Below, in pieces: positions 1 through 11,677 of a DNA stretch of 11,677 bases (positions within the stretch are counted from its first letter, which is position 1; each line of letters starts with the position of its first letter). The notes below the pieces were generated by a model that was not told where the DNA came from, searched no databases, and saw only the letters and a program-made list of their open reading frames with translations. This DNA is from a virus (lineage: Duplodnaviria; Heunggongvirae; Uroviricota; Caudoviricetes), in the IMG/VR virus record IMGVR_UViG_2681813234_000006, positions 1 through 11,677 of that record; one strand, written 5' to 3'. A program made the translations under genes and the position numbers.

Positions 1-254
1 CCGTCGCCCCGCCGAGCGCCACAGCAGTGCTGGAACCGGATAAGGGTTCAGACATATTTATTCTCCTGTAAATAAAAAGGACCATCAGCGGCCCCGTAAC
101 TGACATTTTATTAACGTTTGAAGATATGGATATTTATCAGGGTTTACCGTTTTCTGAACCCTGGATATGTTAAGCATTCAGCCCGCCAGTGGTGGGACGC
201 TGGCTCATCATAGAGAAAGAGGGATGGCTGATTACCTCTGATCAGGGAAATCAC

Positions 255-524
255 ATGCAGTTTTTACATAAAAGAATGCATTTAAATGCAGGAGATACGG
301 TAGTGGTTGACTGCTCTCATCAGTGCAATATTTTGCTGATGACAGATACAAACTTTAATAACTACCGCAACGCAAGAAGCTTTCATCATCACGGTGGTGG
401 CGGTTTTTTTCAGAGATTACCGGCCCACCTTCATGTACCGCATTCAGGTTACTGGAATATTACAATTGATTTAGGAGGCGGAAGTGCAGCTATTCGGCAC
501 TCCATTTCCGTCATCCCAGCATAG
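255..524 (+). CDS. Hypothetical small protein, possibly DUF1883-like (family name from memory only)
   Basis: ATG at 255-257 preceded by AGGGA (243-250). The track ORF starts at 189 but has no obvious RBS. Translation has a GGGGFF motif and a conserved-looking Cys/His pattern. Only sizeable plus-strand ORF not antisense to a better minus-strand gene. Confidence 0.35.
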   Translation: MQFLHKRMHLNAGDTVVVDCSHQCNILLMTDTNFNNYRNARSFHHHGGGGFFQRLPAHLHVPHSGYWNITIDLGGGSAAIRHSISVIPA

Positions 525-835
525 CAACTCGCCTTTAGCCTGAGTAAATGCGTCCTCAAGGACGGCAACGAGTCGCAGTTGCGTGCCGTCCTTTACACAG
601 CGTGTGCAGGCAATACCTTCAGAACTTTCATTATGCCGAGCTCATACAATTTCACCATTTTGTTCAACTACAACGCTCATAATTTTCTTACACTTTTTTA
701 ATAAACCACACCAATAACAACCATCACCGATACCTTTTGTATGCTGTTATTTTGCATTACGGTGTAACGGCAAGAGCCCCCTCCCCGCCCTGAAAGGCTC
801 TGTGTTTTTGATGTGCGCCTGATGTGGCTCAGATA

Positions 836-859
836 CAAAAAAGCTCGCAGTAGCGAGCT
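836..859 (-). terminator. Rho-independent terminator downstream of the 883..1161 gene
   Basis: 7-bp stem agctcgc (842-848) / gcgagct (853-859) with 4-nt loop agta; on the minus strand the hairpin is followed by a run of 7 U (plus-strand A-run 835-841). Confidence 0.55.
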
Positions 860-882
860 AACAGAAAATATGAAGCATGTTT

Positions 883-1161
883 TTATCCACGAAGTATGAC
901 GTTGAATTCATCCATACCGACACGGCTGGCTATCTCGTTGTATTCCTCAACAAGAGCCAGCAATTCTGAATTAGCAGCCATGAACTCTTCAAAAACCTTA
1001 TGGATGGCATCACTGTTTAATAAAACAATGTTCTTTCCTGAAAGGCGATCAGGGGTAGAAAATATAACTGTCAAACGACTAAAGGCCCTGGCTCGTTCAG
1101 CATTAACATCCTCAATACGCTGCAACAAGCTGGAGCACCTGGAAATATCATCAATATTCAC
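883..1161 (-). CDS. Hypothetical 92-aa protein, function unknown
   Basis: GTG start (complement of cac at 1159-1161) preceded by AGGAG about 5 nt upstream on the minus strand; soluble, non-repetitive translation; terminator immediately downstream. Confidence 0.45.
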   Translation of the reverse strand: MNIDDISRCSSLLQRIEDVNAERARAFSRLTVIFSTPDRLSGKNIVLLNSDAIHKVFEEFMAANSELLALVEEYNEIASRVGMDEFNVILRG

Positions 1162-1450
1162 TCTACTCCTGCCATCTGGATGATAATCATTTCACGGAGA
1201 GAAGCACTCAGAAGTACCACTGAAGTATAGCTGGTGACCAGCTACTTACACATCTATTGCCATCCTGCTGATGATAAGTCGACATTAGCCCTTCTGTCTA
1301 TAAACGAAACAAAGGATAAGTTCAGGTTTTAAACACACTGCCAGGATAAAGTATTGTATACAGTATAGAAGAGCGTTATTGAATGACATAAAAAACCAGA
1401 CCTAATCCCTTATCCGGAAGATATATCAAATAAACGGGGAAAATGTATTA

Positions 1451-1517
1451 AGATGGCGTTCCTATTCTCTCCATCCCTGATGTCCACGTAACTCGTTATA
1501 GAATCAGAACGCCATCT
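1451..1517. repeat. Imperfect 18-bp inverted repeat (16/18 match) separated by 31 nt, inside a ~500-bp non-coding gap
   Basis: agatggcgttcctattct (1451-1468) versus agaatcagaacgccatct (1500-1517); the reverse complement of the second arm differs from the first at 2 positions. Confidence 0.4.
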
Positions 1518-1679
1518 GAATACACACAAAAAAGCTGGCTTCACACCCTCCAGATGTGTGAACGCAGTACCCGACCACGTGCTTTCGCAACCAGCACAAA
1601 TCATTTTAAAGCATCGAAAAACGATCAGAATATATCAGAACTTCCTAGCATCCTGCTTGGCTTAGATATTAATCGAGGA

Positions 1680-2765
1680 TTAGCTCCTGTTCTTATCTAA
1701 TTGTGCATTTCGCAATTTATCGTTCAGCACCAATATTTCACCAACTGTTTGTTCAAAACGCCCGGACTCAAGTTCAACCCCAATCGTGCGACGCCCCAAT
1801 CCCATTGCTGCTTTTATTGTTGCCCCCGATCCCATAAAAAAATCCGCAACCACATCCCCCGGACGACTGCTGGCAGAAATTATCTGACGCAACATATCCG
1901 CCGGTTTTTCGCAGGGATGCTTACCCGGATAATACTGCACGGGCTTATGCGTCCAGACGTCCGTATAAGGAACGGCGGCCGATACAGAAAAATAACGCCG
2001 CAGAGATTTGTATTCCTCAAGCAGACTGGCATATTGCCGGTTCAGTTCACTGTATGTGCTGACCAGTTGCTGGTGTGGCGTTGCCAGCTCCCCACGCTGG
2101 TGCTTTTCTTCTGCAACACACGCGAACAGCGCCTGCAGTTTTCTGTAATCAGCTTCGTTCGGTAACTGCCACTGACAGGTACCAAACCAGTGCGACACCA
2201 TGTTTTTCTTTCCGGTGGCTTCCGCTATCTGTTTGGACGTTATCCCCAGTGATTCACGCGCATCACGGAAGTAAGAAATCAGCGGGGCCATGACGTGTTG
2301 TTTAAGCTCGCGCTCCTTTGCCGCATAGCCATCATTTTTTGGCTGGTATGGCCCCTGATAATGTTCGGCAAACAGAATGCGCTCTGTTGCCGGGAAATAC
2401 GCCCGCAGGCTTTCTTTGTTGCACCCGTTCCAGCGTCCGGATGGCTTCGCCCAGATAATGTGGTTCAGCACATTAAAGCGCTCACGCATCATGATTTCGG
2501 TGTCAGATGCCAGGCGATGACCACAGAACAGGTAGAGACTTCCGGCAGGTTTCAGTACCCGCCAGAACTGAGCCAGACACTGATCCAGCCATTTCAGGTA
2601 ATCATCGTCGCCCTTCCACTGGTTATCCCAGCCCTCGGGCTTCACTTTAAAGTATGGCGGGTCTGTGACTATCAGATCGACAGAGTTTTCCGGTAAGGTC
2701 TGGATAAATTCCAGGCAATCAGCGTTGATTAACTCACAACTGGATATTTTTACAGTATCAACCAT
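1680..2765 (-). CDS. DNA N6-adenine / N4-cytosine methyltransferase, beta class (motif IV precedes motif I), orphan
   Basis: N-terminal SVDLIVTDPPYF (catalytic motif IV, DPPY) and C-terminal GDVVADFFMGSGATIKAAMGLGRRTIGVE (AdoMet-binding motif I); ATG at 2763-2765; no restriction endonuclease candidate adjacent. Confidence 0.9.
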   Translation of the reverse strand: MVDTVKISSCELINADCLEFIQTLPENSVDLIVTDPPYFKVKPEGWDNQWKGDDDYLKWLDQCLAQFWRVLKPAGSLYLFCGHRLASDTEIMMRERFNVLNHIIWAKPSGRWNGCNKESLRAYFPATERILFAEHYQGPYQPKNDGYAAKERELKQHVMAPLISYFRDARESLGITSKQIAEATGKKNMVSHWFGTCQWQLPNEADYRKLQALFACVAEEKHQRGELATPHQQLVSTYSELNRQYASLLEEYKSLRRYFSVSAAVPYTDVWTHKPVQYYPGKHPCEKPADMLRQIISASSRPGDVVADFFMGSGATIKAAMGLGRRTIGVELESGRFEQTVGEILVLNDKLRNAQLDKNRS

Positions 2766-2915
2766 AGATCAATAAGCACTTCTCTGATAGGCTCATACCG
2801 CTTTTGCGCAAAGCAGATGGGCCTGAGGTTTGCTTGTGACCCTAACGCATGAGCAGATGGCTGGCAGGTGCCGCTAACACCCACCAGCCGCCCATTACCA
2901 CAAATGAAAAAACCT

Positions 2916-3113
2916 TCACTGCGGAAGGCGTCTGTAACAACCGAACTGATAATCTGCCAGACCCGCCATAACAAGCTGGGTCAGTATTAACTGACAGCGT
3001 TCGCGTGAAAGGTAAGTATTCTGCGCAATTTCCCCAACTGTTGCCGGTTCAGTGACGCTTAATTCATTAAACACCACTCTGGCTGTTTCGGTCATATCCT
3101 GCTGTTTTAGCAT
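2916..3113 (-). CDS. Small (65 aa) putative winged-helix DNA-binding protein, possibly PapI/FaeA-like
   Basis: ATG at 3111-3113 (alternative ATG at 3093-3095); segment TVGEIAQNTYLSRERCQLILTQLVMAGLA matches the spacing and hydrophobic pattern of the PapI helix-turn-helix ([28 protein letters not shown], recalled from memory). Confidence 0.4.
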   Translation of the reverse strand: MLKQQDMTETARVVFNELSVTEPATVGEIAQNTYLSRERCQLILTQLVMAGLADYQFGCYRRLPQ

Positions 3114-3286
3114 GTCTTTTTCTCTTTATTGGTTAACGTGACATACCAATAACTCTTGTCGAAAAAGCCAGCAAGCTGAAAGACCGGTATTAATAACCAC
3201 CTGCACATTTTATGTACCGAACCATTTTTCTGGCATAAAAAACCTCTCAATGGCGGGCGGTAAAAATCTTTGTTACTCAAGAAATT

Positions 3287-4000
3287 TTAACGCACTCTGA
3301 CTGTATTAATTTCAAAATCATTAATATTTCCGCTATTAAATATAACGAATTTCTTACCCCCACTCCTGTATGATTTCGATAACACCAGACGATCATCATA
3401 ACGCGCAATAATGTAATACCATACATTCTCATAGTGGATCGCCTGATATTCCCTCTTAAACTGTGGTTTGTACCAACCGGCAATAAGAGAGAATGCCCAG
3501 AAATAAATCATAAACCCAGCCATCATGAACTCAATTCGGTGATGACGAATAAAAGACATTTCCGAAAAACATTTGACTGAAACAAGTCTTCTTCCAAACC
3601 TGACAAAAAGCGTGATTGTAAAGGCAGCAAGAATGCAGAAAATCAGTACATCTGGCTCAACATGCTGATGAATTACCGAAAACTCCAGAACAGGTGGAAT
3701 AAAAAGCAGCAATATCGCGAGAAAAAGCCGGATAAAACTCAAATTTTGTATATTGCGCTTTTGTTTTATGCCCAAAAAGAAAACAATACCAACTCCCCAT
3801 CCAATAAGGAATATAACGATAACTGTCACAGCATAAAACAAACTTCGTGCTACATCATCGACACCAGCCCCGACAACCCACCATGGAAAGCCATAGTAAA
3901 ATGAAGTACCCCATCCATAGAAATAAGCGCTTCCCCATCCTAGACAGCCCATATAAGCAACAAAAAGTGAAGAGTTTCTGAGCAGAGCACTGTCATCCAT
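3287..4000 (-). CDS. Polytopic inner-membrane protein of unknown function, AT-rich, first gene after the late promoter/terminator (moron position)
   Basis: 237 aa; about 5 hydrophobic segments rich in aromatic and Gly residues (e.g. GWGSAYFYGWGTSFYYGFPWWVVGAG, AVTVIVIFLIGWGVGIVFFLGI); short hydrophilic C-terminal domain; codon usage visibly AT-biased compared with flanking genes. Confidence 0.7.
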   Translation of the reverse strand: MDDSALLRNSSLFVAYMGCLGWGSAYFYGWGTSFYYGFPWWVVGAGVDDVARSLFYAVTVIVIFLIGWGVGIVFFLGIKQKRNIQNLSFIRLFLAILLLFIPPVLEFSVIHQHVEPDVLIFCILAAFTITLFVRFGRRLVSVKCFSEMSFIRHHRIEFMMAGFMIYFWAFSLIAGWYKPQFKREYQAIHYENVWYYIIARYDDRLVLSKSYRSGGKKFVIFNSGNINDFEINTVRVR

Positions 4001-4141
4001 AGTAACACCATTAACAACTCAAAAATATCAACACATATTACATAACAAATTGGATTCCATGCAGTCAAGGGGCGTCATTGATGGAGAAAGTATTGGCACA
4101 ATCATCATCACGTTTAATGTCTATGCCATTTTTTTGGGGAT

Positions 4142-4166
4142 AAAAAAAACCCGCTCGGTCACGGGT
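4142..4166 (-). terminator. Rho-independent terminator downstream of Q (tR'-like)
   Basis: Stem aacccg (4149-4154) / cgggtt (4163-4168) with 8-nt loop; on the minus strand the hairpin is followed by a run of 8 U (plus-strand A-run 4142-4149). Confidence 0.5.
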
Positions 4167-4219
4167 TTTACTAGCTTTGCCATCACGTATAAAAACGGCA
4201 AAATATCAGATTCACACGA

Positions 4220-4248
4220 AATATATGCCTTTTTATCTACTTTTGCAA
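4220..4248 (-). promoter_or_regulatory. Sigma70-type promoter immediately after the Q stop codon (pR'-like late promoter, probable qut region)
   Basis: On the minus strand: -35 TTGCAA (4248->4243), 17-nt spacer, -10 TATATT (4225->4220); sits between the Q stop (4256-4258) and the terminator at 4142-4166. Confidence 0.45.
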
Positions 4249-4255
4249 TACTTTG

Positions 4256-4921
4256 CTATGAAAATGCCGCCTTTTGTTTTGAACGTGTTCCCTCCACCAA
4301 CAATAAAGCTTCACCATCCAGCCGATGAAAAATGTGTTTCATTGCAACCCAGTGACCAGTAAATGTCTTGGACCAGTTTTTGGTTGTTACTCCCACCAGT
4401 AACGCCAGTTCCTGGTATTCGTAACCTTCCCCACCAAAAAGCTCAGCTTTTACCGCCTGCGCCGCCAACCAGATCAACGTCTTCAGGCGCACCAGCGTTT
4501 TTCCTGCAATTTTTCTGGTACCGGATTGAGCATTAAATTCAGTCCACGCCCACTGCGTTATCGCGATCTGATGCTCCCAGCAAATGCTACCGCTGTAACA
4601 CCACAGCAGCCAGGCTTTATGATGTTCTTCAAGAGACAGAACGGCGCGTCGCCATGATGATGTCGAAAACTCAACCGGACTGACCAGGGCAATTGATGAA
4701 CCTTTCGCCAGCGATTGCTTTCCCGGGATCGGTGGATTATCCAGCGTTACTATTTTTCCAGTGACCTTATCGCGGTACCGGATTTTTTTACGTCTGTAAC
4801 GCCCTGTATTGAACATGGCATTCTCCTGCCAGGCTTCAAGCTGACCTTTTGTTGCTCCACTCAAATCAGCGGTGGCGATCGTGAGCTGCTCACGCACAAA
4901 CTGTAAATACTGGTTATTCAT
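4256..4921 (-). CDS. Q-like late-gene antitermination protein
   Basis: Position directly downstream of rusA and upstream of a promoter/terminator pair, as in lambdoid phages. Track ORF begins at GTG 4927; the ATG at 4919-4921 forms an ATGA overlap with the rusA stop (4918-4920). Family assignment is by context and overall resemblance, not by a recognised motif. Confidence 0.6.
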   Translation of the reverse strand: MNNQYLQFVREQLTIATADLSGATKGQLEAWQENAMFNTGRYRRKKIRYRDKVTGKIVTLDNPPIPGKQSLAKGSSIALVSPVEFSTSSWRRAVLSLEEHHKAWLLWCYSGSICWEHQIAITQWAWTEFNAQSGTRKIAGKTLVRLKTLIWLAAQAVKAELFGGEGYEYQELALLVGVTTKNWSKTFTGHWVAMKHIFHRLDGEALLLVEGTRSKQKAAFS

Positions 4922-5277
4922 GCGCACTCCAGTTCTGTGATTTTTATCCCCAGCCGACCACCGGGAATAACCTGACCGCGCATAATATTAACTTCATCAA
5001 ACTGCTCATCGTCGATAATCAGTCCCGCATGTGTCAGTACATCCAGTGGTGCTTTCAGAATATTGTCCAGGTCACGACGGCGCTTATCCGGCGGCTCTGC
5101 AATAATTTTTATTGCCAGCCTTCCGGACAGATTTAATTTCAGTCGCTGCTGGCGAACAATAAGCGCCACATCCCGGCGATAACGCTCCCCTGCTTTTGAT
5201 ACAAAATATGTGCTGCCACGACGACGCCAGTAGGTATTCACCGTCGGCGGGTAAGGCAAAACAAATTCTATCCCCAT
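4918..5277 (-). CDS. rusA: Crossover junction endodeoxyribonuclease RusA (Holliday junction resolvase)
   Basis: 119 aa; clear similarity to E. coli RusA along the whole length ([11 protein letters not shown] versus [40 protein letters not shown] versus [40 protein letters not shown] versus GGRLELTITEM); ATG at 5275-5277 with AGAGG RBS. Confidence 0.9.
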   Translation of the reverse strand: [119 protein letters not shown]

Positions 5278-5289
5278 CAGTAACCTCTT

Positions 5290-6339
5290 TTATCCAAGCA
5301 CGCCGGTTGCAAAGGCGTGATCAAGAAAACGAAAAATTAAATCAACCTGAGAACCATGCTTTTCTTCGAACGCCAACGGATCTGCATGAAGCTCGTTATG
5401 ATGTTTACGACACAACGGTAACGTAAAAATATCGTGGGCCTTTGTTCCCATTCCACCCTGACCGTGACCAATCAGGTGATGGGGGTCGTCGGCTGGTTGA
5501 CCACAACACGCACACGGCTGTGTCTTCACCCAGCGCGTATATTTCTCATTTACCCAACGGCGACGTTTAGGTCGCCTCATGAAAGATTCAGGAGACTCCG
5601 GATCAACGGTAATGCTGACCACCGTCTTTTCCTGTGGCGGGATTTGTTGCTGGTGGACATGAGGCAACGGCGCAAGATTTTTTGTGCGCTGCTTCAGTAT
5701 GCTGGTGGCGCTCTGCTCTCCCGGTACGATGTCACTTTCGCGATACACCGAGTGGATTTTTTCCGCACGTAATCCCAGAGAGCGACGTAATACTGCCTCC
5801 GGTAACGCGTCCGCCACCTGATTGCAGACCGCCCACCAGGATAATTCAGCCAGCGATAATTCCCGCTCTTGTGTGCCATTCATTGCGTGACGTATGACGT
5901 CAATCATCCAGGCTGACAGATTCTGCTGAGCAAGTTGCTCCAGTGAATCAGATGTCTGCTCCCGCAGCTGGTTGTCGCAGTGCCAGCACAACACCATCGC
6001 GCCAGTACCGTAACGATGTATGACGGTTTCGCTGTGATGATAATCGCCGTGTGGCCACTGGCAGGATTTCACGTGACGTAATAACCAGTCAGACAGAGCG
6101 CCTGCACCACCTACAGCACGGATCACCCGCTCATCGCTGAAAAATGGCAGTAACGATTTGTCTTGCGCCAGCGGCTGGCGAACAGCGGGAACCTCTCCTG
6201 ATGGCAGCGCCCGCATGTTTTTCGGTTCCGGCTCCACCAACACCCGGGTATTGTAAAATACCGGCATGGATTCACGGCCCGGATTAAGGACCACCAGCCC
6301 GAGTTCCGGTACCAGAACAGGTCGAAGTAATACCCGCAC
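5290..6339 (-). CDS. DUF968-like phage protein with C-terminal Cys/His (HNH-like zinc-binding) motif; resembles K-12 Qin YdfU by recollection
   Basis: 349 aa; C-terminus QPCACCGQPADDPHHLIGHGQGGMGTKAHDIFTLPLCRKHHNELH; GTG start at 6337-6339 with GGAGG 5 nt upstream; 1-nt gap to the upstream gene stop. Confidence 0.7.
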   Translation of the reverse strand: MRVLLRPVLVPELGLVVLNPGRESMPVFYNTRVLVEPEPKNMRALPSGEVPAVRQPLAQDKSLLPFFSDERVIRAVGGAGALSDWLLRHVKSCQWPHGDYHHSETVIHRYGTGAMVLCWHCDNQLREQTSDSLEQLAQQNLSAWMIDVIRHAMNGTQERELSLAELSWWAVCNQVADALPEAVLRRSLGLRAEKIHSVYRESDIVPGEQSATSILKQRTKNLAPLPHVHQQQIPPQEKTVVSITVDPESPESFMRRPKRRRWVNEKYTRWVKTQPCACCGQPADDPHHLIGHGQGGMGTKAHDIFTLPLCRKHHNELHADPLAFEEKHGSQVDLIFRFLDHAFATGVLG

Positions 6340-6340
6340 G

Positions 6341-6619
6341 TTACCTCCAGATACGTTGCTGGTATGTGCGGGATGGACGCGGTGGACGTTCGGAATAAGG
6401 GAGCCTGACAGAGATTATCCAGTGACGATAATCGAGGCTGAGGGCTTTCTTAACCTCGTATCCGCGCCTGCCGTAACACTGAATCAGCCATTCGGCCTGT
6501 TCTTCAGTGCATGGGGGATGCTGGTACCAGTCAGATTTGAATACATGAGAACGCCGCCCGTGCCTGCTGGCAGGGGCGGCAGAGTTATCCGAATTGTAAA
6601 ATCTGGTATCGTGCGCCAT
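6341..6619 (-). CDS. Hypothetical 92-aa phage protein (occupies the slot of rem in K-12 Qin by synteny; identity not verified)
   Basis: ATG at 6617-6619 (MAHDTRFYNSD...). The longer track ORF begins at a TTG inside the terminator hairpin and is unlikely. Tightly coupled to the DUF968-like gene. Confidence 0.5.
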   Translation of the reverse strand: MAHDTRFYNSDNSAAPASRHGRRSHVFKSDWYQHPPCTEEQAEWLIQCYGRRGYEVKKALSLDYRHWIISVRLPYSERPPRPSRTYQQRIWR

Positions 6620-6691
6620 CAGTTTTCTCTGCTGACGCAGCAGGTGCCAGTTGTTCAGGCTGGCATGTGGATTGTAAACCAGGATGCTCAG

Positions 6692-6717
6692 AAAAAACAA
6701 AACCCGCCGTAGCGGGT
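6692..6717 (-). terminator. Rho-independent terminator downstream of the XRE-ImmA gene
   Basis: Stem acccgc (6702-6707) / gcgggt (6712-6717) with 4-nt loop cgta; on the minus strand followed by UUUUGUUUUUU (plus-strand A-tract 6692-6701). Confidence 0.6.
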
Positions 6718-6721
6718 ATGC

Positions 6722-7825
6722 TCAAACAATCTGAAAAATATTTCTTGGATTTGTAATAGGTCGATTGATGGAGAACAACTCACGAATTAAATCTTGACTC
6801 AAGCCAGTTTTCATAAGAATTCTTAACCAAGTTGCATCATCCAGCATATCAATCGCTTCGGACAGCATACTTGGTTCTTCGGGGCGCAAAAGTTCATCAC
6901 CTGGTTCAACTCTCGTGTACCCTCTAGAATTAAGATGCATATAGCCAGTTCTTGCCTGTTCCTGGGTCAATAGTCCTAATGCACTGGCTCGATAAATACA
7001 CATTTTAAGGCTAATTTTCCATCTAAGCTTAAATTCAACCAGAGCACTCCAATCGAATTGCTTACCTCGTATTCGTGGAAATTCTTTAATGAAAGATAGC
7101 CTAGGAACCAATAAGGCGCTAGAAAAGTGATCAGCTTGTGATTCCGTAAGTTTATCACCAGTAGTTATGCCCTCATGCATTACTAAATGCCCTAACTCAT
7201 GACCTAAATCAGAGCGAAATCTACATATGCTTTTTTTTACATTGTTCCTGATAATAACAGGCCTGTTATTGTGAACAGTGAATGCATCAACACGATCATC
7301 GACTCCCGTAACATGCGCAACGATTACCCCCAAACTCTCCGCCAATTTCACCATTGATGATATAGGACCAAGACCTAGATTCCATGCACGGCGACAATCT
7401 TCTGCCACTCGCTCAATATCATTCGGGGTAAGTAATTCGGTTCCTGGGTGCTCTGGTATGTTGACATCAGGGAATTCGATTTCACCTTCAACAGCAGAAA
7501 TTATAATATTAAGAATCTCAGCCCTGGCCAAGACACTATTAGTCAGCGTTTGAGTCCTAGACTTCTTACTCCGAAAATGGCAAACATCGCTTTCCAGAGC
7601 ATATTTTCGCTCAGTAAATAGAAAATCGGACTTAATCATAAGAGCTGAGGCTATTAACTCCAGGCATTGCTCTGATGGCCTAAATCCCTTCTCCAATTTG
7701 CTAACGAATTGCTTTGTTTTGCCAATTTTTTCGGCCAACTCTTCACATGAAAGCCCAACAGCCATTCTTGCTAGTTTGAGCTTATCGCCTCGATACTCAG
7801 TGAAGTTATTCACCTGATGTTCCAT
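6722..7825 (-). CDS. Fusion protein: N-terminal XRE-family helix-turn-helix + ImmA/IrrE-type (M78/COG2856) zinc metallopeptidase
   Basis: 367 aa; N-terminal GDKLKLARMAVGLSCEELAEKIGKTKQFVSKLEKG (XRE HTH pattern); central HExxH motif in SDLGHELGHLVMHEG; ATG at 7823-7825; overlaps the upstream gene by 20 nt; AT-rich. Confidence 0.85.
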   Translation of the reverse strand: MEHQVNNFTEYRGDKLKLARMAVGLSCEELAEKIGKTKQFVSKLEKGFRPSEQCLELIASALMIKSDFLFTERKYALESDVCHFRSKKSRTQTLTNSVLARAEILNIIISAVEGEIEFPDVNIPEHPGTELLTPNDIERVAEDCRRAWNLGLGPISSMVKLAESLGVIVAHVTGVDDRVDAFTVHNNRPVIIRNNVKKSICRFRSDLGHELGHLVMHEGITTGDKLTESQADHFSSALLVPRLSFIKEFPRIRGKQFDWSALVEFKLRWKISLKMCIYRASALGLLTQEQARTGYMHLNSRGYTRVEPGDELLRPEEPSMLSEAIDMLDDATWLRILMKTGLSQDLIRELFSINRPITNPRNIFQIV

Positions 7826-8456
7826 TACTGCTCACATCCAAATTTTTATCCTTCGTACGCCGACGAAGAGACACCTTATTAATCTCCGCTTCACCAGGGA
7901 GTGTGTTACCGTCAAGGGGCATAAGTGGCATTGATGCTGTAGATTGATGAGAAACCATACTAATCTGAGCACCATAGGTATTAAACCCAACAAGAGCCAC
8001 CTCCCAACGAGGCAGTGTGGACTCTAATTCACCATCTCCCTCTTCGGATAAAAATGGCTCCGCTATGACTCGCCATGTAATATCTTGCTCAGCCTCAACA
8101 TCACCAAACAATGAAAGCTGCTCATGCTCTACTTTATTTCGACGCAGGCGATGTTTCTTTTTGGGGTTATTAATGCAATCTTTGGTAAATTGTAGCGGAA
8201 CTTTATTTAAAGCAACTACATAGTCCAACCCCTTGGAAATCATCTTAAGACCAGGAATTGCGCCTTCATTTTGAATAAGATGGTTTCTGACCCAATCATA
8301 AGCCCTTACACCTTCAGACCAGTTGCTGTCTAATACGTGCTTATGATAGTACAACTGCTCAAGTACGTTAGCGATCTCCGCCAACAACTGGCGAACATTG
8401 CTTTCAGCAAGATAAGGTTGAAATTCCCAACAAGGAGCTAACTGATTTTCATTCAT
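7806..8456 (-). CDS. Hypothetical 216-aa protein of unknown function; first gene of the two-gene cassette (candidate effector or toxin)
   Basis: ATG at 8454-8456; TAA stop at 7806-7808 lies inside the next gene's first codons; no recognisable catalytic motif; acidic C-terminal tail; AT-rich codon usage; only a weak SD but a near-consensus promoter upstream. Confidence 0.7.
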   Translation of the reverse strand: MNENQLAPCWEFQPYLAESNVRQLLAEIANVLEQLYYHKHVLDSNWSEGVRAYDWVRNHLIQNEGAIPGLKMISKGLDYVVALNKVPLQFTKDCINNPKKKHRLRRNKVEHEQLSLFGDVEAEQDITWRVIAEPFLSEEGDGELESTLPRWEVALVGFNTYGAQISMVSHQSTASMPLMPLDGNTLPGEAEINKVSLRRRTKDKNLDVSSNGTSGE

Positions 8457-8490
8457 TTCAAGTTTCGCTTTTTTTAGAATTCGTAAACCT

Positions 8491-8520
8491 TATATTTTCG
8501 CATTTTCCTGTTTTTGTCAA
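8491..8520 (-). promoter_or_regulatory. Sigma70 promoter of the two-gene cassette
   Basis: On the minus strand: consensus -35 TTGACA (8520->8515), 17-nt spacer, -10 AAATAT (8497->8492; AATATA with 18-nt spacer is an alternative); located between the upstream terminator and the ATG at 8456. Confidence 0.45.
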
Positions 8521-8530
8521 CCAGACTAAT

Positions 8531-8553
8531 GCAAAAACCCGCCGAAGCGGGTT
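8531..8553 (-). terminator. Rho-independent terminator downstream of hok
   Basis: 7-bp stem aacccgc (8536-8542) / gcgggtt (8547-8553) with loop cgaa; on the minus strand followed by UUUUUGC; the hairpin core is nearly identical to the one at 6702-6717. Confidence 0.6.
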
Positions 8554-8621
8554 AAGTGCGGGTGCATTGAGGATTCCTGACTCATCAGAGGTGGCGAGGG
8601 ATTTCTCCCTCGCCTGGTCTC

Positions 8622-8777
8622 TTACTCCTCAGGTTCGTAAGCTGTGAAGACAGCGACCTCCGTCTGGTCGGTTCGGATTCGTACCTCGCAGAGGTCTTTC
8701 CTCGTTACCAGTGCCGTCACTATGACGGTTAAACAGATGACGATCAGGGCGATTAACATCGCCTTTTGCTGCTTCAT
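8622..8777 (-). CDS. hokD: Hok/Gef family membrane toxin (type I toxin), HokD/RelF-like
   Basis: 51 aa MKQQKAMLIALIVICLTVIVTALVTRKDLCEVRIRTDQTEVAVFTAYEPEE, differing at one position from HokD/RelF as I recall it; ATG at 8775-8777 with AAGGAG about 9 nt upstream. The track ORF has a 19-codon in-frame upstream extension from 8834. Confidence 0.85.
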   Translation of the reverse strand: MKQQKAMLIALIVICLTVIVTALVTRKDLCEVRIRTDQTEVAVFTAYEPEE

Positions 8778-8834
8778 AGCCTGCTTCTCCTTGCCTTTCG
8801 GCACGTAAGAGGCTAACCTAGATTTGCCGTTCAT

Positions 8835-9030
8835 AGATTGAGCCTCAGATTAATGTTAAGCGTCTTGCAGGACGCGTAATGTTAACTGGGGCTTTTCTCT
8901 ATCTGCCTTTGGTGTTCATGCCTGAGGCAGATAGCCTCAAGCACCCGCAGCAATTCTACTTAAGTTAGATAAGTTTTTCTACGGTATTCTCTCTGCGTCC
9001 CGTAAATAAAGTCTCGGCTCATCATTTTTA
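8835..9030 (-). promoter_or_regulatory. Structured hok upstream/leader region; possible site of hok translational control or an antisense RNA (not demonstrated)
   Basis: 9-bp inverted repeat ctatctgcc (8899-8907) / ggcagatag (8926-8934); additional 7-bp complementarity gcctcag (8842-8848) / ctgaggc (8922-8928); a 9-bp stem-loop ggcgaggga/tccctcgcc (8593-8614) lies just 3' of the hok stop. Confidence 0.3.
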
Positions 9031-9294
9031 TCACAGGTGCGAGGAAAATATATAGCGCCCTCCATCAAGCATAACGAAATACATTTTCCATTCATCGCCA
9101 TTCTTCAATTTAATACGAAGACTTTCCCCGCGAGTGTATTTATTAAACAACTGTTCCGATGTGCTAGTAAGAGGTATTTTTACCGTTATTACAACTACTG
9201 CACCACCATTTAATTCTCGAAGTTCAGCATCCGCACACACAAAAGATGAATAAATGTTATGCTCTGGGTAATCAACAAGTAACAGCATATTCAT
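9031..9294 (-). CDS. Hypothetical 87-aa protein, AT-rich, upstream of hok
   Basis: ATG at 9292-9294 with AAGGA RBS; soluble; no recognisable family; not RelE-like. Confidence 0.6.
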   Translation of the reverse strand: MNMLLLVDYPEHNIYSSFVCADAELRELNGGAVVVITVKIPLTSTSEQLFNKYTRGESLRIKLKNGDEWKMYFVMLDGGRYIFSSHL

Positions 9295-9423
9295 TCCTTA
9301 AATATAGCAACTAAAACAAACAACGATTTAACAGTCGGAATTTTTATATAACATAAGAACGTTGCAAGATCTATCCAGATGAAGCCCCTCCATCCCCCTG
9401 ACTCATTACATGCTTTTACTATC

Positions 9424-9843
9424 TCACCGTAAAACATCCTCCTCGCTTACCAGCCCGTTCTGATTCAGATGCGCCATTACCTGATCAGGCAAACTGCTTA
9501 AACTATTGGCGTACTTTAATGAGAGGGACAGTCGCTTAATCCACATTGTCAGCTCAACAATGAGCCTGTTTTTGACCTCTCGCTCATCCAGAAGAACCAT
9601 TGCAACCTCTGGATTAAAAGCTGCAATAAATTCAGCATTGGCATATGCCTGGGCACCTGTTTCAGTCAGGCAGTTAACATAACATTCTGCAATCACGCCG
9701 CCAGCATCTCCCTTCCATTTTTGACAAACAAAAACCCCTGTTAAATTGCCGTGCTGGTTAACTGACGCATGCCCTACGATGTAGCGTCCTTTAGTTTCTT
9801 TCTCTGCTGCTTCACGCAGCGCCTGATAGTCAATCTCGCTCAT
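9424..9843 (-). CDS. Ead/Ea22-like family protein
   Basis: 139 aa; N-terminal IDYQALREAAEK and central NAEFIAAFNPEVAMVLLDE resemble the motifs I recall for Ead/Ea22-like prophage proteins; ATG at 9841-9843. Confidence 0.55.
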   Translation of the reverse strand: MSEIDYQALREAAEKETKGRYIVGHASVNQHGNLTGVFVCQKWKGDAGGVIAECYVNCLTETGAQAYANAEFIAAFNPEVAMVLLDEREVKNRLIVELTMWIKRLSLSLKYANSLSSLPDQVMAHLNQNGLVSEEDVLR

Positions 9844-10016
9844 TCATCGCCCCACTCATCACAATATGCTTCGACCGGAGTTTTTCCTGCTTCATAGTCA
9901 TCACGCCATACTTCAGCATCAGCAGCACTTCCACTACGTAACTCTGCATATTCCATTAACAGTTCATGCCATTCTTCAAAACTGACGTTGTATTTAGTTG
10001 AACCAAAATCAGCCAT
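9843..10016 (-). CDS. Small acidic protein (57 aa), absent from the supplied ORF track (below its size cutoff)
   Basis: Hand translation MADFGSTKYNVSFEEWHELLMEYAELRSGSAADAEVWRDDYEAGKTPVEAYCDEWGDE; ATG at 10014-10016 with GGAGGA about 9 nt upstream; TGA stop (9840-9842) overlaps the ATG of the Ea22-like gene (ATGA coupling). Confidence 0.5.
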
Positions 10017-10059
10017 TTTGTTCTTCCTCCTCGTCTTTTATTTCATGATATGAGTAATT

Positions 10060-10272
10060 TCAGTAGTTAAAGAAAATTTCTTTTGCTTCGTCATGAATTT
10101 CATCAGGTGTCGCGTCATCATCCACTTCGAATACATCCTCAAAATCTCCACCAGTTATTCCCGTTTCAATAATTATTTTGAATTTTCGTATTTCACTACC
10201 GCCCTTTCGGACGGCCTCCTGATGTTTTGAGGGTGCAGGCATCCCTCCGGTTAAGGACTCTATTTTATTCAC
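10060..10272 (-). CDS. Hypothetical small protein (60-70 aa), start uncertain
   Basis: Track ORF starts at GTG 10272 with no SD; an internal ATG at 10240-10242 is preceded by GGAGGG at very short spacing; acidic C-terminal half; no family recognised. Confidence 0.35.
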   Translation of the reverse strand: MNKIESLTGGMPAPSKHQEAVRKGGSEIRKFKIIIETGITGGDFEDVFEVDDDATPDEIHDEAKEIFFNY

Positions 10273-10347
10273 AGTGCTGAATTTAATTATTCAGATTTGG
10301 ATTATGCTTTCTCTTTCACTTCACCAAGTTCCGATTATTAATTTGGC

Positions 10348-10770
10348 TCACAACAGCACCTCCTGAAAGTTTCCCCGATAAAACGCCAGTACACGCTGCA
10401 TAACTTCGCTTTTCCGGCACTCACGACAAATTATGTTCTGACACCTGTCGTAGCGGCGTATTTCTCCGTCTGGTAATGACCAGATAAGGTCCGGATCAAC
10501 CACAGATGTTTTCTTCAGATTTGCCCTTGAGAGTTTTTTGCGGGCATTTTGCCAGTCCTTACGCGCCTGCGCTGACGGGAATAACCCGTAACCAGAGTTG
10601 TATACATCGCCGCTGGCAACCAGCTCTCTTGCGAGAACGCTCATCAGATATCTTGTTGCCCCAGTTTTAGCTTCCAGTTGTCGTAACGTCTCTCGCCCGC
10701 TCTGGCGTACGAGATCAACAATCTGCCCTTTAATTTTTTCCCGCTCTTCCTGTGTAAATACTTTTGCCAT
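10348..10770 (-). CDS. ren: Ren-like protein (lambda Ren family) with an N-terminal extension
   Basis: C-terminal IICRECRKSEVMQRVLAFYRG resembles lambda Ren LVFKECRQSAAMKRVLAVYGV, and TGATRYLMSVLARELVASG resembles TGATVTSINQAAAKMARAG (both recalled); ATG at 10768-10770 with GGGGAGGG RBS (track ORF starts at TTG 10836). Confidence 0.6.
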   Translation of the reverse strand: MAKVFTQEEREKIKGQIVDLVRQSGRETLRQLEAKTGATRYLMSVLARELVASGDVYNSGYGLFPSAQARKDWQNARKKLSRANLKKTSVVDPDLIWSLPDGEIRRYDRCQNIICRECRKSEVMQRVLAFYRGNFQEVLL

Positions 10771-10786
10771 AAGCCCTCCCCTGGAA

Positions 10787-11581
10787 TCACTTTTCCGACA
10801 CAATACGACTGGAGGAATCAACAATCTGTCGGACAATATCCCGGTGCTTGTTCAGCTCCCGCAGCGCGGCGCAGACTCGCTCCCACTTCTGGACATGACT
10901 TTTCGCCCGGCGCAGTTCGCGGTTTGCCATATGCAGCGATGGTAAAATCAGGCCATTGGCTCGCGTTTCAGTGAACGATGGCAACGACTGCACAATGTCC
11001 CCCACAGTATCTGTTTTAATTTCTTCCTGTGTTGCCGCTTCCTGTACTGGTAACGCAACACCGGCTGGCTGAGAAAAGGCTTTACCAGGTGTTTTCTCTA
11101 CCGATACAACTTTCGGCTCTGCTGGTAAATTTTCCCCGGTTTCTTTTACCCGCATCCACTTACACCCCTTCCCCTGTCCCAGCTTAATCACCATGCCATC
11201 GCGGCAAAGCTTTTCCATCGCAGAAACCAGCGACCTGACGCAATCAGCACGCCCCACAGCAATTGCAATCTCAGCGGTGGTCATTGCCCCACCATGAGCA
11301 AGTGTGGACAGGATGTCGCAGCGATTCAGTGGCTCACGCTCTTTTCTGCTGACCACCGGACGGGATTTTCTTTCCACTTTACACACCGTTACTTTTTTTT
11401 CTTTCACGCCAGTTTGTCGTTCTGAAACAGACCAGTAACCATTAACCGACACAACTTCTCCCAGCTCTTCGTACTCCCTCAGCATTTTAATCGCCTCTGC
11501 AGGTTCAATGCCCAAACTGGCAGCAAGCTCGGTGCACGTCACCTTTTGCATCGCTTTTAACGTATCAATCAACGTTTCCAT
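10787..11581 (-). CDS. Hypothetical prophage protein with two predicted winged-helix-like DNA-binding segments; not lambda O or P
   Basis: ATG at 11579-11581 with GGGAGA RBS (track start at 11584 is TTG); two segments with HTH-like patterns (VTCTELAASLGIEPAEAIKMLREYEELGEVV and MTTAEIAIAVGRADCVRSLVSAMEKLCRDGMVIK). Confidence 0.6.
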   Translation of the reverse strand: METLIDTLKAMQKVTCTELAASLGIEPAEAIKMLREYEELGEVVSVNGYWSVSERQTGVKEKKVTVCKVERKSRPVVSRKEREPLNRCDILSTLAHGGAMTTAEIAIAVGRADCVRSLVSAMEKLCRDGMVIKLGQGKGCKWMRVKETGENLPAEPKVVSVEKTPGKAFSQPAGVALPVQEAATQEEIKTDTVGDIVQSLPSFTETRANGLILPSLHMANRELRRAKSHVQKWERVCAALRELNKHRDIVRQIVDSSSRIVSEK

Positions 11582-11677
11582 CAAAATTTCTCCCGTTAAA
11601 AATTATTTACCAATCTCAAACAAAACTTATCCCCTGAACCCTGGTGGAATTTCGGTGTCCGGTTCAGAAATATGATT

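Follow-up and report, generated by a model that had tools for sequence, protein, structure and literature searches.

Two co-directional genes on the minus strand of an 11,677-nucleotide stretch of viral DNA (Caudoviricetes; IMG/VR record IMGVR_UViG_2681813234_000006, positions 1 to 11,677; this whole stretch is hereafter called the window) share an inherited, dual-coding overlap of 20 nt, and it is fairly probable that the downstream gene is translationally coupled to the upstream one, i.e., that the two lie on one mRNA and that initiation at the second depends largely on ribosomes translating the first. The upstream gene, rmrT, would encode a toxin of 216 amino acids (aa), and the downstream gene, rmrA, a 367-aa antitoxin in which an XRE-type helix-turn-helix (HTH) domain is fused to an M78 zinc peptidase. 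The original prediction, made from the sequence alone, had likened the pair to toxin-antitoxin and effector-regulator pairs, and the matches of both proteins to PADLOC profiles (RmrT, E = 1.4e-24; RmrA, E = 1.5e-105) agree with the former: By these profiles, the cassette is a RosmerTA-type toxin-antitoxin/anti-phage module.

The overlap can be read directly from the two gene ends. The 3′ end of rmrT reads ...AAT GGA ACA TCA GGT GAA TAA, with the TAA stop at 7808-7806 (minus strand), while the 5′ end of rmrA reads ATG GAA CAT CAG GTG AAT AAC, with the ATG at 7825-7823. Relative to rmrT, rmrA is read in the +1 frame, and its ATG lies 17 nt upstream of the rmrT stop, within the last seven rmrT codons. 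The 20-nt out-of-frame overlap that had been predicted is therefore present, and the PGAP annotation in RefSeq places the identical overlap in a record of 100% identity (Escherichia coli N18-04097) as well as in a 94% variant that occurs in E. coli 042 and ABU 83972. The junctions of N18-04097 and 042 are one base apart, an AAT-to-GAT change just before the ATG that replaces a toxin Asn by Asp. In both proteins, the overlap codes for a disordered end, namely, the C-terminal tail of RmrT and residues 1-7 of RmrA, which explains why dual coding is tolerated at this site.

Across these 20 nt, nucleotide diversity drops to about one third of the level in the flanks. Computed on 22 distinct sequences without indels, the mean pairwise diversity was 0.063 within the overlap, versus 0.185 in the flank that codes for rmrT only and 0.155 in the flank that codes for rmrA only, which places the overlap in the lowest 1% of all 20-nt segments. 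The usual relaxation of third positions (0.36-0.37) is lost in both frames across the overlap. Between the ATG and an in-frame GTG (codon 5 of rmrA), the toxin-frame third positions displayed diversities of 0, 0.14, and 0, compared to a mean of 0.337 (P ~ 0.013), and this constraint speaks for the ATG as the point from which the rmrA frame is translated. Judged by these substitution patterns, both reading frames are under selection across the overlap. On the toxin side, the C-terminal tails are variable and unalignable in the wider RmrT family, and an NGTSG[DE] tail is conserved only in the close, overlapping clade; since the tails vary elsewhere, this local conservation is best explained by the overlap itself.

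Conservation of the overlap in homologous cassettes had been suggested as a check on the original prediction, and it came out in its favor. From 77 metagenome and viral contig loci that contain both genes, we obtained 21 distinct junction sequences, 19 of which retain the overlap geometry. At 63-100% RmrT identity, every cassette has both codons, the ATG giving an overlap of 20 nt and the GTG one of 8 nt. In one cassette (L158, IMGVR_UViG_2890520432_000006; RmrT 61% identical), AAG stands in place of the homologous rmrA ATG, and the possible starts are limited to an ATG and two GTG codons that would overlap rmrT by 35, 23, or 8 nt, respectively; the 35-nt start is the one used in a database entry (376 aa, P0029). 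Another cassette (L159, RmrT 53% identical) has a 14-nt overlap, as do all of seven more (RmrA 54-66% and RmrT 38-54% identical to the proteins of the window), which come from Xenorhabdus, Proteus, a second E. coli prophage type, Raoultella, Yersinia, and others. A core ...T-GGA-AC... is common to the clades with 20 and 14 nt. It codes for [N/D/Y]-G-T in the toxin frame and, as ATG-GAA-C, for Met-Glu in the antitoxin frame; the ATG of the window is therefore the homologous start. This ATG-GAA-C start is kept down to 38% RmrT identity, at an overlap of either 20 or 14 nt. The overlap is inherited; its length is 20 nt in the clade of the window, 14 nt in its sister clade, and 8/11 nt in relatives of the Pseudomonas type. 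In the cassette copy of one contig (L106, from ERZ791624; coverage 1.4x), a single nucleotide is missing directly behind the overlap, and the rmrA frame is broken; at such a low coverage, this is probably an error of assembly and not a pseudogene.

We also examined a wider set of 80 genome loci, with RmrA relatives at 31-66% identity. A co-directional open reading frame (ORF) of at least 150 aa ends beside the RmrA N-terminus in 70 of the 80 loci, and many of these ORFs are detectable RmrT homologs. Overlap was unavoidable, whatever start is chosen, in 42 of these 70 loci (at least 8 nt in 30 of them, and 1 or 4 nt in 12), and most of the others have the option of a 4-nt overlap or display spacers of 2-17 nt. 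Proteobacteria mostly have overlaps of 8, 11, 14, 17, or 20 nt with weak Shine-Dalgarno (SD) sequences; Actinobacteria mostly have overlaps of 4 or 1 nt, often with strong ones. Tight initiation of rmrA close to the rmrT stop is thus usual in the family (in most, not all, loci), with the overlap and its length being lineage-specific.

The rmrA start is most likely the ATG at 7825-7823, as reading frame and homologs indicate. The N-terminus cannot extend further upstream because of an rmrA-frame TGA at 7834-7832. On the other side, only 10 nt, without any start codon, separate the rmrT stop from the codon for Tyr11, the first residue of a block (YRGDKLKLAR, residues 11-20) that is conserved in ~120 RmrA homologs, down to <45% identity; any start that keeps this block must therefore lie inside rmrT, at the ATG or at the GTG. 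Starting at the GTG (7813-7811), a codon that the original prediction had left out of account, would give an 8-nt overlap, with the ATG kept merely via constrained toxin codons, and coupling would remain. This GTG is the start codon closest to the rmrT stop, as termination-reinitiation would expect; it is kept in all junctions of the 20-nt clade and in the ATG-less L158, an overlap of -8 is the third commonest class in E. coli (PMC10666635), and the disordered residues 1-7 of RmrA are probably dispensable according to the AlphaFold2 (AF2) model. However, the GTG is missing in the 14-nt sister clade, where the homologous ATG-GAA is the only start, and translation of the rmrA frame in this interval would account for the constraint on the toxin-frame third positions between the two codons. 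The GTG does not have a better SD either (duplex with the anti-SD of -3.3 kcal/mol, which 36% of random window positions match), and PGAP picks the ATG over it, such that we regard the GTG as quite unlikely to be the true start. Even further downstream, a start at Met21 (7765-7763, within LARMAVGL) would abolish the overlap and reduce it to an artifact of start calling, which the original prediction had denied on the grounds that HTH helix 1 needs the upstream start. The Met21 ATG does exist, and a few database entries (P0030, P0047, P0052, and P0107) are called from there, but it falls within helix 1 (AF2 residues 13-23; Pfam HTH_3 from residue 16; 434 repressor alignment from RmrA residue 15). 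Most RmrA homologs have L, C, V, or Q at this position, while the YRGDKLKLAR block upstream of it is conserved, and its SD amounts to -0.7 kcal/mol. The position in helix 1 and the homolog conservation effectively refute this start, leaving it very improbable, and the argument from helix 1 holds.

We then considered the signals from which rmrA could be initiated. A weak SD had been noted at the ATG, and this holds true: The best anti-SD duplex has an energy of -4.0 kcal/mol, which is equaled by 27% of random window positions. Among the other 16 annotated genes at the locus, 11 have anti-SD duplexes of -5.7 to -11.8 kcal/mol; at the corresponding rmrA starts in relatives, the values range from +0.4 to -4.4 kcal/mol. 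A consensus scan for sigma-70-like promoters found none within rmrT. We rejected an internal promoter or a leaderless rmrA transcript, as the scan came back empty and an AAAAAT-like stretch 5′ of the ATG is not conserved in the 94% variant. The same scan left the TTGACA of the rmrT leader (8520-8515) unscored, because no -10-like hexamer lies at a canonical distance from it. The junction RNA folds no better than shuffled sequences (z = 0.09), the variants do not keep a small GUGAA/UUCAC hairpin, and an Rfam search of the junction returned no match, so that an occluding or regulatory RNA structure was likewise discarded. The region 5′ of the ATG is A/U-rich. Overall, rmrA appears to have no efficient initiation signal or promoter of its own, and no occluding RNA structure was found at its start.

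Because the rmrA start comes without a useful SD sequence or a promoter of its own, RmrA synthesis would depend largely on the ribosomes that translate rmrT. From this circumstantial evidence, we infer a plausible scheme, in line with the coupling that the original prediction had proposed, in which a single mRNA, beginning at the conserved leader, carries both genes, and in which ribosomes reinitiate at the ATG after terminating 17 nt downstream of it. Alternatively, the ribosomes on rmrT may keep the rmrA site open and locally enriched in ribosomes. Antitoxin synthesis would then always accompany toxin synthesis and never occur without it, with the junction setting a low ratio; expression would be coupled, not necessarily leading to a 1:1 complex. 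As a precedent, four of five overlapping E. coli pairs examined were translationally coupled, with a varying SD contribution (PMC6728339).

A number of points weigh against such coupling. The bioBF genes overlap and have a weak SD, yet they are uncoupled (PMC6728339). The commonest coupled spacings in E. coli are -4, -1, and -8, and the reinitiation efficiency drops steeply with distance, as measured in the downstream direction (PMC10666635). With an overlap that puts it at -17, the ATG lies outside the range of efficient termination-reinitiation reported for E. coli (-8 to +6; Huber et al. 2023); the alternative GTG would be of the -8 class. The overlap is not a defining feature of RosmerTA, given that the verified system has a 9-nt spacer and vmi480/vmi470 a 5-bp one, and the start moved in L158 while the overlap persisted, so the rmrA start is evolutionarily movable. 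Lastly, an unstructured (z = 0.09) and rather A/U-rich junction leaves room for de novo initiation. The RNA fold, the A/U-rich stretch upstream of the ATG, the bioBF precedent, and the dispensability of the overlap in the two related systems are also what speaks for independent initiation, where free 30S subunits would start rmrA de novo and the overlap would reflect compaction of a mobile module, with no regulatory role. Set against this are an SD at the rmrA start that is no better than random here and consistently weak in relatives, a tight juxtaposition that is kept in very diverged cassettes (an obligatory overlap in 42 of 70, with most others within 17 nt), and the coupling of four of the five E. 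coli pairs. We hold independent initiation to be a possible but doubtful explanation.

A further alternative is more remote. A programmed +1 frameshift within the overlap, yielding an RmrT-RmrA fusion protein, would suit the +1 relation of the two frames, but the overlap contains no recognizable slippery or shift-prone motif, there is no Rfam element at the junction, and the relative frame of rmrT and rmrA varies in the family (overlaps of 1/4 versus 8/11/14/20 nt, and various spacers). We rejected it on the missing motif and the unconserved frame, and its probability appears vanishingly small. Translational coupling is the preferred reading. It could be taken one step further by supposing that the backward overlap of 14-20 nt and the SD-less start are a functional design, in which RmrA is made only from ribosomes finishing RmrT and at a level well below 1:1, which we consider unlikely. 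If it were so, neutralization would be catalytic or regulatory (through the peptidase/HTH and ClpXP toxin turnover) and not stoichiometric, any disturbance that a phage caused in termination or reinitiation in the host would at once shift the balance to the toxin, and the junction would show, in a natural setting, that E. coli ribosomes can reinitiate efficiently 17 nt backward. Coupling over 17 nt backward, if demonstrated, would in itself mean that reinitiation in E. coli spans greater distances than those known so far, and the junction is a natural test case for backward distance.

One element of the original prediction was not supported, namely, that the overlap ensures a fixed stoichiometry of the two proteins. 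Related systems have spacers (9 nt and 5 bp) in place of an overlap. The RmrT of Gordonia phage Kita is incompletely neutralized by its RmrA, with no confident complex predicted. Links to the ClpP protease and to clpX point the same way: A related prophage toxin-antitoxin pair of E. coli E101 makes clpP essential (Rousset et al., bioRxiv 10.1101/2020.05.25.114553), and in Pectobacteriaceae, where rmrA is essential by transposon sequencing (Tn-seq), rmrA and clpX are co-essential. These observations suggest proteolysis and regulation rather than 1:1 titration, and the control exerted by RmrA in the window is probably not a simple 1:1 titration.

The two proteins differ in how much can be said about them. 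RmrT, which matches PADLOC profile PDLC03929, falls in PHROG 5786, a group of unknown function, and searches of Pfam and NCBIfam gave no match. Its AF2 model has a predicted local distance difference test score (pLDDT) of 62, with residues 186-216 disordered (pLDDT < 50). The RmrT family is small, comprising 59 clusters at 50% identity among 1.84 billion representatives in an exhaustive HMMER search, and its members are nearly all 195-225 aa long; a profile search in a word-indexed database reached only to ~42% identity, and the exhaustive search went beyond this. Our literature search found no experimental test of this toxin family. RmrA, which matches PADLOC profile PDLC03943, contains the Pfam domains HTH_3 (PF01381, residues 16-62, E = 2.5e-08) and Peptidase_M78 (PF06114, residues 176-281, E = 4.4e-11). 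Residues H209, E210, H213, and H217 are invariant among 43 homologs. The AF2 model has a pLDDT of 88.8, with N-terminal disorder confined to residues 1-7, and a Foldseek search matched its peptidase part to CapP and IrrE/PprI, and its HTH to SinR and CapH. The match to the NCBIfam "spr1629 family repressor/antitoxin" (E = 2.8e-45) scores 155 bits, below the curated cutoff of 335. By analogy with relatives, RmrT would be toxic and RmrA would neutralize it: In one relative, a delta-rmrA mutant was not obtainable, rmrA is essential by Tn-seq in Pectobacteriaceae, and vmi480/vmi470 has been shown to behave in this way. Table 1 lists the coordinates of these genes and of the features around them.

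Table 1. Coordinates, in window positions, of the rmrT-rmrA cassette and of the features that bear on its junction.
Feature	Positions	Strand	Remarks
rmrT, 216-aa putative toxin gene	7806..8456	minus	ORF; PGAP coding sequence (CDS) WP_001004961.1
rmrA, 367-aa putative antitoxin gene, XRE HTH + M78 Zn-peptidase	6722..7825	minus	PGAP CDS WP_000401169.1
Dual-coding overlap, 20 nt	7806..7825	minus	RmrT ...N-G-T-S-G-E-stop; RmrA M-E-H-Q-V-N-N
ATG, rmrA start codon	7823..7825	minus	Most likely start; PGAP choice; conserved ATG-GAA-C core
GTG, in-frame codon 5, alternative start	7811..7813	minus	Would give an 8-nt overlap
TGA, rmrA-frame stop that precedes the ATG by three codons	7832..7834	minus	Same stop in nearly all close relatives
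Met21 codon (LARMAVGL), downstream start candidate, rejected	7763..7765	minus	Inside helix 1
RmrA N-terminal peptide bearing on the start assignment			MEHQVNNFTEYR
HTH_3 DNA-binding domain of RmrA (residues 16-62)	7640..7780	minus	Pfam; 434 repressor and SinR matches
HELGH zinc-binding motif of the M78 domain, H209-E210-x-x-H213	7187..7201	minus	From the translation
rmrT leader	8457..8523	minus	TTGACA (8520-8515) and two 27-nt direct repeats; candidate promoter/operator
Terminator-like hairpin + T-run, directly 3′ of the rmrA stop	6702..6717	minus	3′ end of the cassette
Terminator-like hairpin 3′ of hokD	8536..8553	minus	Putative insulation from upstream transcription

The window is a Rac/Qin-like lambdoid E. 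coli prophage, in whose nin region the cassette sits as an autonomous module of ~1.8 kb. The gene order around it is racR, ydaS/T ... hokD, [rmrT-rmrA], DUF968, rusA, Q, with the toxin gene upstream and the antitoxin gene downstream. Terminator-like hairpins are found only outside the pair, one on each side. The ~70 nt 5′ of rmrT are kept with few substitutions in 23 distinct cassettes, the outer flanks of which differ. Since the hairpins lie only outside the pair and the leader is conserved across differing flanks, the pair travels as a self-contained module. The two leader repeats (GGTT[G/T]AC...GCGAAA, at 8522-8496 and 8489-8463) are spaced 33 nt apart and could, together with the TTGACA, be a promoter and an RmrA operator. 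The cassette is carried by 244 of 5,426 complete E. coli genomes (~4.5%) and also by two plasmids; a search of isolated phage genomes found none.

Directly upstream of the cassette lies a type I toxin-antitoxin locus (window 8622-8946), with the hokD CDS at 8777..8622 (minus strand, PGAP) and a match to sok at 8772-8946 (Rfam RF01794, 111.7 bits), such that two unrelated toxin-antitoxin modules, hokD/sok and rmrT-rmrA, stand back to back in the nin region of the prophage. A second, paralogous cassette (L161; E. coli GCA_039912505.1, 864-2622) encodes RmrA and RmrT proteins that are 58% and 41% identical to those of the window. It also resides in an E. coli lambdoid prophage, in the order DUF977-[T-A]-HOK_GEF-DUF1367-YbcO, with hok on the other side and a 14-nt overlap. 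The finding of cassettes beside hok on either side suggests a recurrent insertion hotspot around hok. Elsewhere in the window, a RefSeq CDS of the DUF7167 family (WP_419867029.1; 10060-10191, minus strand) has an odd start call, ATA at 10191-10189, and sits inside a 70-aa ORF that starts with GTG at 10272. Downstream of Q, a 361-aa ORF (1680-2765, minus strand), annotated by PGAP as a DNA methyltransferase, is possibly another defense or anti-restriction cargo gene of the prophage.

These results matter mostly for annotation. Genes that are annotated as "hypothetical protein / helix-turn-helix" in ~4.5% of complete E. coli genomes can be recognized as a RosmerTA-type cassette. A fixed RmrA start is useful for cloning and expression, where splitting the ORFs at their annotated boundaries truncates one of them. 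Beyond the window, initiation of rmrA near the rmrT stop with a poor SD is a common trait of the Proteobacterial relatives examined.

The cassette belongs to a defense family that is already catalogued, and its overlap is already in the RefSeq annotation. RosmerTA, consisting of the toxin RmrT and the antitoxin RmrA, was described by Millman et al. 2022 (bioRxiv 10.1101/2022.05.11.491447). The verified system, from E. coli OLC-716, is like the window a two-gene operon with the toxin first. Its RmrA of ~370 aa also combines an HTH with a Zn-peptidase and is 29% identical to that of the window (E = 3e-35), and its rmrA start is likewise very near the rmrT stop, with a weak SD (-2.5 kcal/mol). 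It differs in its RmrT (239 aa), which is unrelated in sequence to the window RmrT (E = 9.4), in the spacer that takes the place of the overlap, and in its genomic context. Both window proteins nevertheless match the catalogued hidden Markov models, though RmrT is unrelated to the verified RmrT; the two genes are adjacent and co-directional, and RmrA has the M78 HExxH motif and an N-terminal HTH. Protection against phage is known for the OLC-716 and Gordonia phage Kita systems, and by analogy the window cassette may act similarly.

Another close system is vmi480/vmi470 of the Vibrio mimicus element MGIVmi1 (Luo et al. 2015, PMC4671572), where, as in the window, a toxin of ~200 aa and of unknown function comes first and is followed by an antitoxin of ~362 aa with an HTH and a Zn-peptidase. 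These genes are tightly linked, with an intergenic spacer versus the overlap of the window, and have a promoter of their own; the toxin kills E. coli, and co-expression neutralizes it (PMC4671572). The PADLOC RmrT profile that matches the window has 198 positions, equal to the published length of Vmi480, and from this equality of lengths, the window RmrT is presumably a homolog of Vmi480. The E101_02645/E101_02644 pair of E. coli E101 is related to vmi480/vmi470 and is, like the window pair, prophage-borne, with a domain-less toxin upstream; its accessions were not found among the listed cluster members, and the protein accessions differ.

At the level of folds, the RmrA peptidase is nearest to CapP and IrrE/PprI, and its HTH resembles CapH, SinR, and the 434 repressor. 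In CapH/CapP (CBASS), DdrO/IrrE(PprI), and ImmR/ImmA, however, repressor and protease are separate proteins that control other genes, whereas in RmrA, they are fused and paired with a toxin. With HTH and peptidase in a single 367-aa ORF and a likeness at fold level only, we did not retain a repressor/M78-protease pair as a description of the window. With regard to the overlap itself, a recent review puts >80% of overlaps under 30 bp, and the first ~70 co-directional pairs in the K-12 table of Huber et al. include out-of-frame overlaps of similar length to that of the window (ftsI/murE, -14; thiP/thiQ, -17; thiB/thiP, -25). A length of 20 nt is thus uncommon but unremarkable, and an ordinary feature of operons. 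The order of the genes has its counterparts as well, in higBA, hicAB, and mqsRA, which are toxin-first toxin-antitoxin systems with likewise tightly linked genes.

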